From assembly GCA_963695545.1 (NCBI GenBank), contig OY968796.1:2016001-2080000 (forward strand): a stretch of 64,000 nucleotides of DNA. The letters are read 5' to 3'. Within the stretch, counting starts at the first letter, position 1. The number at the start of each line of letters is the position of its first letter. The notes below the pieces were generated by a model that was not told the DNA's origin, made no database searches, and saw nothing but the letters and a program-made list of their open reading frames with translations. This DNA comes from Terriglobia bacterium. Lineage in GTDB: Bacteria > Acidobacteriota > Terriglobia > Acidiferrales > UBA7541. The translations under genes were made by a program, and so were the position numbers. Below, piece after piece: positions 4,553-63,475 of this stretch.

Positions 4553-4735
4553 ACCAATTTTGGTAATCGGGCGCGCCGGCGGGCGTAGCAAACCCGCGTC
4601 ACGCGCCGCCGCTGCGGTTGCACCAAGTTGGGACGGATGATACCGTGAGCACGTTGAGGCCGGTCCGCGCAGAGCGCGGTGCTTCAGCGGTGTCGGTGCG
4701 TGCGCGGTCGGGCGACGCCCCGGCGCGGAGTGCGC

Positions 4736-11492: not shown

Positions 11493-11519
11493 GGAAAACG
11501 CAAGAAGCAACCCGGACAT

Positions 11520-11562
11520 TCGAAATCCCCACCCTTTGCTGCGCAAAGGATGGGCCACCCCG
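11520..11562. repeat. REP-like palindrome
   Basis: CCCACCCTTTGCTGCGCAAAGGATGGG imperfect hairpin followed by CCACCC. Confidence 0.6.
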
Positions 11563-11683
11563 GGCTGCGCGAAGCGCAGCCCGACGGACGAGCTATGTTG
11601 CCTCGGGATGGAGATCGCCACCGGTCTGACCGATGGGTGCGGGTCAAAAAAAGGGGAAGCCCCAACTGAAGGGTGCGCCACCC

Positions 11684-11795
11684 GCCATTCTCTTGAGTTC
11701 TTCCAGCGTTTCGGCCTGCGTAAAATGGAATATCCCGGGGCGCGTGCTTCGTATCCGCCCTCCGGTGATTTCTCCACTGCGAAGATAATTTCCCC
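11684..11795 (-). pseudogene. HicB-like antitoxin fragment
   Basis: EIIFAVEKSPEGGYEARAPGYSI, then after a 1-nt frameshift TQAETLEELKRM; no start codon, truncated. Confidence 0.7.
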
Positions 11796-15348: not shown

Positions 15349-15998
15349 TGCTGCGCGTGGGACTCACGGGCGGAATCGCCTGCGGCAAAAGCACTGTGGC
15401 CGCGATGATGACCATGGTCGGATGCCACGTGCTCGAAGCCGATAACCTTGCGCACGATCTGATCGAGCCGGGGCAGCCTGCGTACGACGAAGTTGTGCGC
15501 GAATTCGGCAGCGGAATTCTCGCCGCCGATAAGCGCGTGGATCGGGCCGCGCTCGCGCGCATCGTGTTCGGTGATGGCGCGCGTCTTCTCGCGCTGAACA
15601 GCATCGTTCATCCGCGCGTGCTCGAAGTCACCGACAAAGAATTTGAGCGTCTGGCCGTGGCCGATCCTTCGGGCGTGGCCGTGCTCGCGGCGGCCTTGTT
15701 GATCGAGGCCGGCTACGACGCGCATCTCGATCGCCTGGTGGTGGTGTGGTGCCGGCCGGAGCAGCAGATCGTGCGCTTGACCGACCACGCGTCGGGCCGC
15801 GGCATGACGCGCGCCGAAGCCGAGCAGCGCATCGCCGCGCAAATGCCGCTCGATCGCAAGAAAGCCATGGCGGACGACTTGATCGACGCTTCGGGAACGC
15901 TCGACTCCACGCGGCGGCAGGTGACGGCGCTCGTCGCGCGGCTGAAACGCCTTGCAGCGGAAGGCGCCGCGGCGGGAGAAGAAAGGATATCGCCATGA
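15348..15998 (+). CDS. coaE: dephospho-CoA kinase
   Basis: VGLTGGIACGKST, LNSIVHPRV and RIAAQMP motifs. Confidence 0.96.
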   Translation: MLRVGLTGGIACGKSTVAAMMTMVGCHVLEADNLAHDLIEPGQPAYDEVVREFGSGILAADKRVDRAALARIVFGDGARLLALNSIVHPRVLEVTDKEFERLAVADPSGVAVLAAALLIEAGYDAHLDRLVVVWCRPEQQIVRLTDHASGRGMTRAEAEQRIAAQMPLDRKKAMADDLIDASGTLDSTRRQVTALVARLKRLAAEGAAAGEERISP

Positions 15999-17149
15999 AG
16001 GGCACGCATTCGATTCCGCGCGCGTTGCGCTTTATCGCGTTGGGCGCGATCCTGGGCCTGGGTTGCTACTGGGCGGGCAGCCGCTGGGGCACGCGCCAGC
16101 CGGATCGCGTCGAAGCGCTGCCGCAACCACCCGCGCCGCCGAATTTAACGGGCATGAGCGAGGACGAAGCCATCAACGTGAAGGTTTACAGCGAAGCGGC
16201 GCCCGCGGTGGCGAACATCGTGACGCGCACGCTTGAGTACGACGTGTTCATGGACCCGGTGCCGGCCGAAGGCGCGGGCTCGGGATTTGTGATGGACCCT
16301 CGCGGCTACATTCTGACCAACAATCACGTGATCGAAAACGCGCAGGCCATCGAGGTGACGCTCGGCGACGGTCAGCGCTTTCCCGCCAAGCTCGTCGGAA
16401 CCGACGTGCGCGACGACGTGGCGCTGATCAAGATCGATCCGGGCGATCACAAGCTGATCGCGTTGCCCATGGGTGATTCGACCACGCTGCAGGTGGGCCA
16501 GCACGTGCTGGCCATCGGGAATCCGTTCGGATTTCAAAGCACGCTGACCACGGGCGTCGTCAGCGCGCTGGGGCGAACCGTGCAGACCAGCGACGAATCG
16601 TTCATCGATGGCGCGATCCAAACCGATGCCGCGATCAATCACGGAAATTCCGGCGGACCGCTGCTTGATTCGCACGGCGACGTGATCGGCATCAATAGCG
16701 CCATCTATTCGACATCGGGAACGACGGCGGGCATCGGCTTTGCGATTCCCATCAACACCGCGAAGCGCATCGCGAACGATCTGATCACCAACGGGCGCGT
16801 TCGTGAGGTTTACCTGGGCATTCAAGCGCTCGCGCTCGATCCGGGGTTCGCGCAGGCGCTTGGCCTGCCGGTTGACGAAGGGCTGCTGATCGAAGACGTG
16901 GACCAGGGAAGTCCCGCGGCGCGCGCCGGACTTCGCGGCGGCGATCGCGTGGTGATCGCCGGAATGCGCCGGATCGAGATCGGTGGCGACGTGCTGACCG
17001 CCATCGATGGACAGAAGATCGCGAGCCAGCTCGATATGGCCGTGGCGCTCGATAAGGATCATCCCGGCGACACGGTCACGCTTGAAATTTATCGCGGCAA
17101 TCAGAAGACGGACGTGCGCTTGACGCTCGGCGAGCTAAATCCGCAGTAG
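15995..17149 (+). CDS. HtrA/DegP-family serine protease with one PDZ domain
   Basis: LTNNHV and QTDAAINHGNSGGPL motifs, C-terminal PDZ; ATG 15995 overlaps the coaE stop. Confidence 0.95.
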   Translation: MKGTHSIPRALRFIALGAILGLGCYWAGSRWGTRQPDRVEALPQPPAPPNLTGMSEDEAINVKVYSEAAPAVANIVTRTLEYDVFMDPVPAEGAGSGFVMDPRGYILTNNHVIENAQAIEVTLGDGQRFPAKLVGTDVRDDVALIKIDPGDHKLIALPMGDSTTLQVGQHVLAIGNPFGFQSTLTTGVVSALGRTVQTSDESFIDGAIQTDAAINHGNSGGPLLDSHGDVIGINSAIYSTSGTTAGIGFAIPINTAKRIANDLITNGRVREVYLGIQALALDPGFAQALGLPVDEGLLIEDVDQGSPAARAGLRGGDRVVIAGMRRIEIGGDVLTAIDGQKIASQLDMAVALDKDHPGDTVTLEIYRGNQKTDVRLTLGELNPQ

Positions 17150-32499: not shown

Positions 32500-33010
32500 A
32501 GGGTATATATACCCCCGTACCAAAAACGTAAAATGATGATTGCAAAAGGTTTGCAGGGAAAGAGTGCGGATGAGTGTGAAAATAAATGTTTTGATATTGC
32601 GTTGTTTCAATGAGATGCGCACTCTTTTGTAATTGATTGAAAACAAATGGTTTGGAAGGGCGATTCGATGCAGGGAATTGCAGTTTTTGCGGAGGGATCC
32701 TTCGAGTCGCCCGACGCGCGGCTCGCCTGCCACGGCGGGCAGGCTCAGGACTCGAATGGTTGGAAGCAATGCGCTCCGCGCAGACCGGCGCCGGATGCTC
32801 AAGTCGTGGAGATTGCGACAAAGCGCCCTTCGCGGCGCGTTCTGCGGAGGCGATCGGAGCAGACGGGAACAGGTAGCGCGGGCGAGCGGCGTGCGTTGCC
32901 CGCAGTTTTGGCGGCGCAGGTGTGCGTTTCGAGGTCACACCCAAGGTTAGCACGAACAATACTATGCTGTCAACATATATCTATGGGGTATTCGAATAGG
33001 GCATTCGAAT
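32500..33010 (-). repeat. dispersed intergenic element, copy B (homologous to 11090-11492)
   Basis: Same blocks in the same order as copy A, with a longer variable middle. Confidence 0.85.
32763..32788 (+). repeat. 26-bp palindromic mini-element GAAGCAATGCGCTCCGCGCAGACCGG
   Basis: Identical to 52456-52481 and to the units at 61644-61751. Confidence 0.95.
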
Positions 33011-52436: not shown

Positions 52437-53129
52437 ATGAAGGAAACGGTTGATCGAAGCAATGCGCTCCGCGCAGACCGGCTCAGCAACGCACTCCGCG
52501 CCGACGGGCGGAACCTTGCGATGTTGGTTTTGCTGATCATGTTTGTGGGCCTCCCGCTCGCCGCTCAGGATCAGGCGTCGGGCAAGGCCGCACAAAGCCC
52601 GGCATCCGCCCCAGACGCTTCCGTCCCGCAGACGGCCGCGTCGGATCCGACGTACATCATTGGCTCCGACGACGTGTTGGACATCAGTGTCTGGAAAGAG
52701 CCGGACGTTTCTCGCGTCGTGCCGGTGCGACCTGACGGCAAGGTATCGCTGCCGCTCGTGAGCGACGTGCAAGCCGCCGGCCTGACGCCGAGCGAACTTG
52801 CCGCGGACCTCACCACGCGTCTGAAAAAATTCCTGAACGATCCGCAGGTCACGGTGATCGTCACGCAAATCAACAGCCGCCGTGTGTACATCGTTGGAGA
52901 AGTGGCCCGGCCGGGAGCGTTTCCGCTGCTGCCCGACATGACGGTTCTGCAGGCGCTGGCGGACGCCGGCGGGTTCACGACGTTCGCGAACACCAAGAAA
53001 ATCCACATTCTGAGAACGATCAACGGCAAGCAGACCGAATTCCCGTTTGAATACCACGAAGTCCTTGAGGGAAACAAGACTTCGGAAAACATCAAGTTAT
53101 TGCCGGGCGATGAAATCGTCGTCCCGTAG
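52437..53129 (+). CDS. polysaccharide export protein (Wza/OPX family)
   Basis: YIIGSDDVLDISVW, VRPDGKVSLPL and SLBB motif LQALADAGG. Confidence 0.92.
   Translation: MKETVDRSNALRADRLSNALRADGRNLAMLVLLIMFVGLPLAAQDQASGKAAQSPASAPDASVPQTAASDPTYIIGSDDVLDISVWKEPDVSRVVPVRPDGKVSLPLVSDVQAAGLTPSELAADLTTRLKKFLNDPQVTVIVTQINSRRVYIVGEVARPGAFPLLPDMTVLQALADAGGFTTFANTKKIHILRTINGKQTEFPFEYHEVLEGNKTSENIKLLPGDEIVVP
52456..52508 (+). repeat. 26-bp mini-element plus a degenerate tandem copy in the Wza N-terminus
   Basis: Exact copy at 52456-52481, then TCAGCAACGCACTCCGCGCCGACGGG at 27-bp period. Confidence 0.9.
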
Positions 53130-60830: not shown

Positions 60831-62183
60831 TTGATGCCCAGCCCGGCTGACCCACCCAACCCGCGCGTGCAGGCCGACGACGGCTTTCTTCAGTTACTCC
60901 TGGAGACCCTCGAAAGCCTGGAGAATCCCGCGCGCGCGCAATTCCTTCAGCGCTTTTTCAAAGCCATCGCTCAGGTTGAGTTGAGCGAATCGGTCAGTTC
61001 GGAATATTGGGAACGCATTCGCACGCGCATGCGAGAGACGAGCGAGATTCCGGGAAGTCCGGTTTCGTTCAAGCGCGCCATCATGGACGTGCTGATCAGT
61101 TCGGAATCGCTGCGCGTTCCGATTCTGATCGAATACGAGGAGCTCAAGAAATTACAGGTGAATGCCGCAACCGATCCGCTGACGGGTCTCTACAACCGGC
61201 GCCTGTTCGATGAATATTTCGACAAGGAACTGAATCGCTCCGCGCGCTACAACCACCGGCTTGGCCTGGTGGTTTTCGATATGCACGTTTTCAAGCAGAT
61301 CAACGACCGCTACGGCCATCCGCGCGGCGATCAATTGCTGCGCGCCGCGGCGCAAACGCTGCGCGAGTCGCTGCGAACTTCCGACTATGCGTTCCGAATC
61401 GGCGGAGACGAATTTGCGTTGCTGCTGCCCCAGACCGATGCCGAGCAAGCGCTCGCCCTCGCCCGGCGTCTGCGCGCCGCGTTCTCGGAGCAGATCGAGC
61501 CGATGCGCCTGGGCGTCGCGGTGGGTCTCGATTACGGCGTGGCAGTTTATCCCGAGGACGGCGGCCAGAAGGAATCGCTGCTGGGCGTCGCGGACGAACG
61601 TCTCTACCAGTGGAAGACCTATCGCCGCCCGGATCGGTCTGTTGAAGCAATGCGCTCCGCGCAGACCGGTGAAGCAATGCGCTCCGCGCAGACCGGTGAA
61701 GCAATGCGCTCCGCGCAGACCGGTGAAGCAATGCGCTCCGCGCAGACCGGTGAACCGACGCGCACGGCGCAGACCGGTGAAGCAACGCGCGCCAGACCGG
61801 CTGGAGACCAATCTACGGAACCGCCCGCGCCGCCGGCGGCGGCTTCAGCGGGGCGCAACGTACCCGCCGCGCCCGCGAAGCCCGTGGCGCCGCAAGATTC
61901 ACGCGAAACGATCGAAGAGCGCCGCAAATCGGAGCGCGTGGCGCTTTCCGGAACGACAGCCTATGCGCAATTGGCCGATGTGGCGGATCGCACTGCGCGC
62001 GTCGTGGATCTCAGCTCTGGTGGCGTCGCGCTCGAGATGGCGCGCCCCGAGGAGGTTGGCGCAACGTTCTCCGTCGTGCTGCACGTGCCCATTCTTCCTC
62101 CTGTGCGGGTGAGCCTGCGGCGAATCTATTTTCGCGCGGGGATTGGCGAAACGGCGCGGATCGGCTGCGCGTTCGTCACGTAG
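60831..62183 (+). CDS. diguanylate cyclase with C-terminal PilZ domain
   Basis: TDPLTGLYNRR, RTSD I-site, RIGGDEF; C-terminal RKSER and DLSSGG. Confidence 0.93.
   Translation: MMPSPADPPNPRVQADDGFLQLLLETLESLENPARAQFLQRFFKAIAQVELSESVSSEYWERIRTRMRETSEIPGSPVSFKRAIMDVLISSESLRVPILIEYEELKKLQVNAATDPLTGLYNRRLFDEYFDKELNRSARYNHRLGLVVFDMHVFKQINDRYGHPRGDQLLRAAAQTLRESLRTSDYAFRIGGDEFALLLPQTDAEQALALARRLRAAFSEQIEPMRLGVAVGLDYGVAVYPEDGGQKESLLGVADERLYQWKTYRRPDRSVEAMRSAQTGEAMRSAQTGEAMRSAQTGEAMRSAQTGEPTRTAQTGEATRARPAGDQSTEPPAPPAAASAGRNVPAAPAKPVAPQDSRETIEERRKSERVALSGTTAYAQLADVADRTARVVDLSSGGVALEMARPEEVGATFSVVLHVPILPPVRVSLRRIYFRAGIGETARIGCAFVT
61644..61800 (+). repeat. 27-bp in-frame tandem repeat (4 perfect and 2 degenerate units)
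   Basis: GAAGCAATGCGCTCCGCGCAGACCGGT x4, encoding EAMRSAQTG. Confidence 0.97.
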
Positions 62184-63400: not shown

Positions 63401-63475
63401 GGCGATATCGTCTAAAGGTTAGGACGCGGCCCTCTCAAGGCCGAAATCCGGGTTCGAGTCCCGGTATCGCTACCA
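63401..63475 (+). tRNA. tRNA-Glu (anticodon CTC)
   Basis: GGCGATA/TATCGCT acceptor stem, CGGCC-CTCTCAA-GGCCG anticodon arm, GGTTCGAGTCC T-arm, encoded CCA. Confidence 0.97.

Follow-up and report, generated by a model that had tools for sequence, protein, structure and literature searches.

The field has yet to establish how repeats of 20-30 nt move, although very small repeats within genes are already known as small dispersed repeats (SDRs), Rickettsia palindromic elements (RPEs) and intragenic REPs. For SDR1-8 of the Nostocaceae, Elhai et al. in 2008 reportedly found repeats of 21-27 nt with compensatory changes. We know of no enzyme that has been assigned to SDR-like elements. Insertion of IS200/IS605 elements leaves no target duplication. 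In the accessible text of the papers concerned, the SDRs of Nostocaceae are described as apparently mobile (PMC5861425, PMC2884548, PMC3116915), and SDR5 is said to target HIP1 (PMC5861425). REPs of the GTAG and CGTC types include intragenic copies, a minority lying in frame in genes, among them DNA-repair genes (Di Nocera et al., available portion of PMC3733652). The TnpA-REP enzymes studied so far cleave between C and T or between C and A, according to the excerpt available from PMC8266576. TIRtron/TIRYT elements are treated in PMC3733652 and PMC6006769, where, in the sections at hand, TIRYT activity is inferred and not demonstrated. IS608 works with a pair of hairpins and a pair of guides (PMC5934647, in part), and the RPEs measure about 150 bp (PMC10969869, in part).

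We analysed a 64-kb stretch (positions 2,016,001-2,080,000 of contig OY968796.1), hereafter the window. The original prediction had described here a 26-bp palindromic unit occurring identically at three unrelated loci. It corresponds to a real, well-bounded and lineage-restricted micro-element, and literature searches returned no description of this 27-nt sequence family.

Genomes and search settings

The genome containing the window (G000) is 4.16 Mb long, consists of one contig and is 94% complete. Five relatives in its genus (G001 to G005) complete a set of six genomes; G003 is a draft assembly of about 240 contigs. Units were counted with an iterated weight matrix at a cut-off of at least 18 bits, with an order-5 Markov genome as control, and a looser cut-off was used for the statistics on 48 pairs of neighbouring units. 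Genes in G000 were called by a self-trained gene caller, which marked 81% of the genome as coding. From 189 filled loci, 26 distinct filled/empty pairs were obtained, the relatives being only 70-89% identical. The survey of Y1 flanks covered 36 loci in the six genomes, comprising all six Y1_Tnp matches of G000 together with 30 out of 36 found in the relatives.

The 27-nt unit and its copies in the window

The identity of the 26-mer at three loci was confirmed, with six exact copies at 32763, 52456, 61644, 61671, 61698 and 61725, where 100 shuffles gave an expectation of 0. The real unit, nevertheless, is 27 nt long and its 5' end lies one base earlier. The tandem array that had been placed at 61644-61751 therefore keeps its four perfect units but begins at 61643. 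From 14 clean filled/empty pairs (see below), the unit can be written as Y-RAAGCAATGCGCTCCGCGCAG-N-CCGG, and its profile contains a purine tetranucleotide, RAAG, separated by 3 nt from the stem. The internal hairpin with a 5-bp stem and a 3-nt loop is the minimum-energy fold, as had been proposed; it is weak (-5.3 kcal/mol) and of no unusual stability (z -1.2). There is a single hairpin per unit, the unit ends are not complementary, and the minus strand presents GGAG in the loop. The stem-closing pair 8-20 covaries among 129 distinct units (TA 63, CG 25, TG 18, CA 15; Fisher p 2e-5), to which subfamily structure could contribute. Among stem mismatches of the top strand, G-T is found 41 times and A-C 24 times (p 0.046).

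The absence of stop codons from all six frames is true of the 26-mer only, since the 27-nt array has TGA in one of the six, and stop-free 26-mers are commonplace (43% of 20,000 shuffles). It is only because its copy begins with C that the Wza frame is open.

Table 1. Positions of the element, its host genes and related features. Coordinates refer to the window unless G000 is given.
Feature	Position	Strand	Remarks
Perfect 27-nt units, four head to tail, in the linker between GGDEF and PilZ	61643..61750	+	reads (EAMRSAQTG)x4
Decayed fifth unit (27 nt)	61751-61777	+	
Shortened sixth unit (23 nt)	61778-61800	+	
Host gene of the array, GGDEF-PilZ protein	60834..62183	+	449 aa; reading frame stays open
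Perfect unit in the Wza N-terminus	52455..52481	+	begins with C; reads RSNALRADR
Decayed second wza unit	52482..52508	+	similar stretch in G003 and G004
Host gene wza, polysaccharide export protein	52437..53129	+	230 aa from ATG 52437
Intergenic unit, placed at one end of a different REP-like repeat	32762..32788	+	
Diverged intergenic unit	4660..4686	-	4 mismatches; overlooked in the original prediction
Hairpin and tail matching element positions 8-26	11560..11578	-	one mismatch; within a gene-less Y1/TIRYT-like terminal repeat copy, ~11503-11704
uvrC with insert	G000 3089862-3091706		insert at residue ~440

The peptides read from the two genes, EAMRSAQTG in the GGDEF-PilZ linker and SNALRADR in Wza, were correct, and the copy at 32763-32788 is indeed intergenic (Table 1). 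The GGDEF domain spans residues 112-264 and PilZ residues 363-448, with the array in the linker between them. This array is absent from the orthologues in G001 to G004, and in the alignment with G003 and G004 it amounts, as a whole, to a net gain of 54 residues. Another assembly has this protein with two units fewer and with no difference over the aligned residues (431 of 431), so how many units the array really holds may depend on the assembler. The amplification by slippage that had been suggested fits such a change in copy number, although assembly collapse may also account for it.

The Wza protein has Poly_export and SLBB domains. At the position of its perfect unit G004 lacks exactly 27 nt, and G003 has a heavily decayed unit, a contrast hinting at refreshing by conversion or re-insertion. 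A second composite of the unit with the REP-like repeat found at the intergenic copy is present elsewhere in G000. Inside that REP-like repeat there is an 18-nt hairpin with CCTG...CAGG ends (window 32726-32743), which is missing from a paralogous repeat near G000 704,900. An AT-rich dispersed repeat, present at 32500-32680 and genome-wide, is the top other 16-mer family (46 copies).

Family size and genomic placement

The whole-genome search for more copies retrieved 8 exact ones and 66 with at most four mismatches in G000, while the weight matrix recovered 141 units in this genome and 1 in the Markov control. These units form 99 loci, of which 68 are intergenic, 6 are on gene edges and 25 lie within called genes. 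Sitting inside genes is thus not a general rule, as about 70% of loci are intergenic. Neither did we find a special compatibility with coding DNA: besides the frame with a stop, only 25 of the 99 loci are wholly in genes in a genome that is 81% coding, which means that coding insertions are strongly depleted.

Head-to-tail neighbours at 27 nt account for 40 of the 48 pairs, and one pair is inverted. The original prediction of a 27-nt period wherever the unit is tandem holds for these 40, but three pairs have a period of 32 and one of 28. Internal array junctions often have a target-like N-N-T end, of the left-flank type, and terminal units end with CGG. No replichore bias was seen (53 vs 46 loci, with poorly defined origin and terminus). 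A called start codon is found within 30 nt of 29 of the 74 non-coding loci (20 antisense, 9 sense; p 0.06), an excess that depends on the self-trained caller and on an understated null, and in several intergenic copies the called start is the element's own ATG. Intergenic copies lie near gene starts as often as near gene ends.

Distribution across genomes

From 201 genomes of the family searched with a degenerate pattern, matches were found in four (63 in G000, 28 in G003, 15 in G004 and 1 in G001) and none in the other 197, including G002 and G005 (0 copies). Among 185,579 species genomes scanned there were nine loci, eight in two records of Ca. Acidiferrales and one on a short contig; no cyanobacterial record was among these nine genome-collection matches. 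The element turned up almost exclusively in three genomes of one genus of Ca. Acidiferrales. Since a UvrC grouped with that of G000 at 90% is labelled Ca. Acidiferrales too, as are the two records with the motif, G000 is probably an acidobacterium of this order. The short contig, 1.8 kb long and filed under Rhodanobacter, contains two element copies and is 99.9% identical to G000 1094111-1095949, being probably mis-binned. In metagenomes we found 41 element loci, whose best G000 matches are 71-89% identical, and the exact Wza sequence is present on 5 contigs. Carriage by phages was rejected, since the sole match in the viral collection is about 90% like the G000 chromosome.

Insertion boundaries and target

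Clean empty sites differing by multiples of 3 nt, as anticipated, were found in 14 of the 26 filled/empty pairs, 11 differing by exactly 27 nt and three by 54, with one of the 14 'empty' sites holding a decayed unit. The other 12 pairs differ by 0, 0, 24, 24, 36, 55, 60, 65, 68, 114, 164 and 186 nt. At -1, 10 of the 14 empty sites in the clean pairs agree with the left flank and 0 with the right side; at +1, 13 of the 14 agree with the right flank and 4 with the left side. The empty sites thus correspond to the left flank as far as -1 and to the right flank starting at +1, so that the inserted unit has 27 nt and generates no target duplication. A one-nucleotide duplication at positions 0/27 was considered and discarded, since T predominates at position 0 irrespective of the base in the empty site.

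Nine of the 14 empty sites have T at -1, and nine have C at -4. In G000, 63% of the filled loci show C at -4 and 76% show T at -1, the latter being part of the scoring, because the weight matrix took in position -1. The target is a loose C-N-N-T, and the unit lands just 3' of it. Judging from the empty sites, the cuts would fall between T and Y and between G and Y. Breakpoints of the element are at one position across unrelated loci, and the empty sites have no long homology to it. The cleanest pair is within G000 itself: of three Y1 paralogues, one is longer by 27 nt, in frame. Occupied loci differ between congeners. It is, then, the DNA that is mobile and not a peptide that is conserved, as originally proposed: filled and empty sites differ by exact multiples of 27 nt, and five of the six possible frames are used inside genes.

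Proteins carrying insertions

Clean insertions of nine residues were found in UvrC, FolC, a PuuD-like hydrolase and the Y1 transposase paralogue. A lactate-oxidation Fe-S protein and prephenate dehydrogenase have insertions of several units, and the insert aligns less clearly in RecQ, in a TonB protein and in two further proteins. The UvrC insert (Table 1) is absent from G001, G002, G004, G005 and 9 of the 15 cluster members among those listed, and it falls in a gap relative to the solved RNase H domains 2NRT and 3C65. The UvrC loop is an insertion hotspot, with at least three other, different inserts of 9-10 residues in relatives, G003 included. The insert of G003, which has 27 nt, begins with TTGAA and ends near CCGG; it was rejected as a sister family, being single-copy in 5 genomes.

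A candidate mobiliser

A RAYT/Y1 gene flanked by the motif, which had been expected, was found at none of the 36 Y1 loci: one of them has an element copy inside the gene, and another has a weak copy about 1.3 kb away. Three of the six Y1 genes in G000 lie between terminal inverted repeats (TIRs) of ~165 bp, and these TIR-flanked genes have class-2 Y---NP motifs. Two intact paralogues are at G000 1475749-1476375 and 1478770-1479396. A hairpin in their terminal repeats matches element positions 8-26, the 3' 19 nt, at 16-17 of 18 scored positions, with 1-2 mismatches. Outside the elements, four G000 sites match positions 8-26 with at most two mismatches, of which three are in Y1 terminal repeats (that at 11560-11578 included), in a search that yields 2-5 matches per genome by chance in the Markov control. 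With a hairpin-plus-tail pattern, chosen and tuned after the terminal-repeat match had been noticed, 34 matches were obtained, 29 in elements and five elsewhere, all five in Y1 terminal repeats; none of 75 other such hairpins has the tail. The terminal-repeat copies share one ancestor.

The terminal-repeat hairpin is present in five of the six genomes of the genus and in 0 of 31 other genomes, which matches the genus restriction of the element. The Y1 clade or the hairpin is also present in the element-poor G001 (1 copy), G002 (0) and G005 (0); in the element-rich draft G003 the search for the hairpin gave no match. When the guide-pairing rules for IS608 and TnpA-REP were worked through manually, they failed to predict the boundaries of the 27-mer.

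Two more Y1 genes of G000 (1387402-1387944 and 1424767-1425324) have short flanking palindromes of their own, with TTCA/TGAA loops, and G000 contains over 30 occurrences of words from one of these palindrome types.

Other candidates were searched for as well. Neither Cas1 nor an RVT_1 reverse transcriptase had a match in G000. IS110 was not found in G000, G002 or G003 and occurs in G001 and once in G004, while no TnpB was detected in 5 genomes, G000 among them. The only high-copy IS, a 1.25-kb integrase-type element with nine copies, was also rejected, as it was not seen adjoining the motif. This element, which from our reading we take to be IS3-like, occupies G000 15537-16786 and eight other loci, and its nine near-identical copies suggest recent activity.

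Proposed mechanism and alternatives

Any account of the movement has to accommodate what the comparisons establish. The unit has a set length and set boundaries, inserts without duplication and with a bias in its target, has been gained in particular lineages, stands in frame in housekeeping genes and matches the terminal-repeat hairpin. We suggest, giving it close to an even chance, that the repeat is a scarless, non-autonomous element of 27 nt, cut and pasted in trans as single-stranded DNA by the TIR-flanked Y1 (HUH) transposase of the genus. The link to this enzyme is indirect, through the hairpin common to the terminal repeats. The Y1 enzyme would bind the 5-bp hairpin on the top strand, with one cut following the terminal CCGG and the other preceding the unit's first base, and the 27-mer would be joined after the target T, in the manner of IS200/IS605. 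A double-stranded circle of 27 bp is not feasible, which indicates a single-stranded intermediate. Since 27 nt leave the reading frame intact, units that land in a linker, a loop or the n-region of a signal peptide could persist as nine extra residues, most remaining coding insertions being presumably purged. Arrays may later gain or lose units through slippage or through renewed insertion at one site. A narrower proposal, which we hold to be possible and rather doubtful, is that the TIR-flanked Y1 element itself gave rise to a 27-nt parasite with one hairpin, derived from part of its terminal repeat and pasted scarlessly as single-stranded DNA.

The same scarless element might instead owe its movement to another enzyme or to an RNA intermediate, as is said to have been proposed for the cyanobacterial SDRs, with the terminal-repeat match due to shared ancestry or chance. 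We consider this somewhat unlikely. It agrees with the lack of Y1 loci flanked by the element (36 loci), with cut sites that differ from the TnpA-REP rules and with stem mismatches slightly favouring G-T over A-C, and the proximity of 29 of the 74 non-coding loci to a start codon could mean coupling to transcription. That excess, however, comes from a self-trained caller with an understated null, and its 20 antisense vs 9 sense cases give p 0.06; moreover, RVT_1, Cas1, IS110 and TnpB were not found in G000, and the only hairpin-plus-tail matches outside elements are those in Y1 terminal repeats. It is also conceivable, and in our view improbable, that no dedicated enzyme takes part and that host repair or template switching spreads the hairpin oligomer through microhomology and gene conversion, with slippage building the arrays. 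The target flanks do resemble the 3' end of the element one period away (C at -4 and 23), internal junctions frequently repeat the left-flank type, and the wza site is perfect in G000 and decayed in G003, as such a process would have it. The single breakpoint position across unrelated loci, empty sites devoid of long homology and a unit length that stays constant in intergenic DNA as well are difficult to reconcile with it.

Two further readings would deny that the element is selfish, or that it exists. The many intergenic copies near start codons, together with the GGAG of the minus-strand loop, would suit a protein-binding or translation-control site kept by selection near gene starts, yet site occupancy varies between congeners, both orientations are found inside coding loops and 197 of the 201 family genomes searched have no copy, so that we give this reading very little weight. 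As for an assembly artefact, the GGDEF-PilZ protein that is two units shorter in another assembly is the point in its favour. Against it, the copies are diverged from one another, they are found in 41 metagenome loci and in two other genomes, an independent contig 99.9% identical to G000 has two of them, and the exact Wza sequence recurs on 5 contigs. For the family this explanation is largely refuted, and we regard it as extremely improbable.

Significance

The boundaries of the family are mapped, its target is biased, filled sites can be compared with natural empty ones, and paralogues of a candidate enzyme are intact in G000, so what it adds is a concrete and testable enzyme lead. The family also offers a clear example of how, within one genus, non-coding DNA has supplied new loop and linker peptides to essential proteins, UvrC and FolC. 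If the reading of a Y1 parasite is true, this would be among the smallest transposons and the first of its size class with an assigned enzyme. It would equally represent a natural insertion of nine-residue peptides into a proteome, in which a copy of the enzyme's own gene was also hit. If the link to the enzyme fails, it would be another lineage-specific tiny repeat of the sort already described.

Comparison with known systems

A CRISPR-repeat origin was considered for ATTGAAGC, which we take to resemble the ends of type I-G CRISPR repeats, and it was rejected: the units are head-to-tail without spacers, Cas1 was not found in G000, and the sole Rfam match in the window is a tRNA gene (63401-63472). 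A MITE was discarded as well, the ends not being complementary and target-site duplications being absent.

REPs share with the element a palindrome of 20-50 nt (27 nt here), high copy number (141 units), a mostly intergenic location (68 of 99 loci) and a minority of copies in frame, and its RAAG purine tetranucleotide 3 nt before the stem recalls the REP-Mb type with a 5-bp stem. Unlike REP/BIME/REPIN sequences, though, it lacks a GTAG or CGTC tag at the hairpin foot and is arranged head-to-tail (inverted in 1 of 48 neighbour pairs). It also departs from REP/RAYT systems in having no RAYT gene between its copies (0 of 36 Y1 loci) and in lying near gene starts as often as gene ends, and the boundaries between T and Y and between G and Y fall outside the cleavage rule of TnpA-REP. 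As in TIRYT-dependent elements, its 3' 19 nt are common to the terminal repeats of a TIR-flanked Y1 in G000. The 27-mer, however, consists of one sub-hairpin with a new 8-nt head, rather than a TIR copy or a TIR dimer, and such a minimal derivative is not described in the accessible parts of PMC3733652 or PMC6006769. RPEs are likewise palindromic, in frame in unrelated genes and a source of added peptide, but they measure ~150 bp against 27 nt, and the present element uses five frames and is mostly intergenic.

The resemblance to IS200/IS605 lies in the precise insertion 3' of a short target without duplication. Here there is one hairpin rather than two ends, neither tnpA nor tnpB inside, no detected replichore bias and a degenerate target. 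Of the fixed tetra- or pentanucleotide that a guide sets for IS200/IS605 elements, what was observed here is a loose C-N-N-T, and the pairing rules yielded no guide. The Nostocaceae SDRs are closest in size to the 27-nt element, and the likeness is one of description: both are very short, dispersed as well as tandem, lineage-restricted and apparently mobile, with a target preference and compensatory changes. The element differs from them in belonging to another phylum (Ca. Acidiferrales), in its loose C-N-N-T target and in having a candidate HUH enzyme. In sum, it does not belong to the REPs, MITEs, RPEs or CRISPR repeats, and it works like an SDR or a minimal passenger of the IS200/IS605 type.
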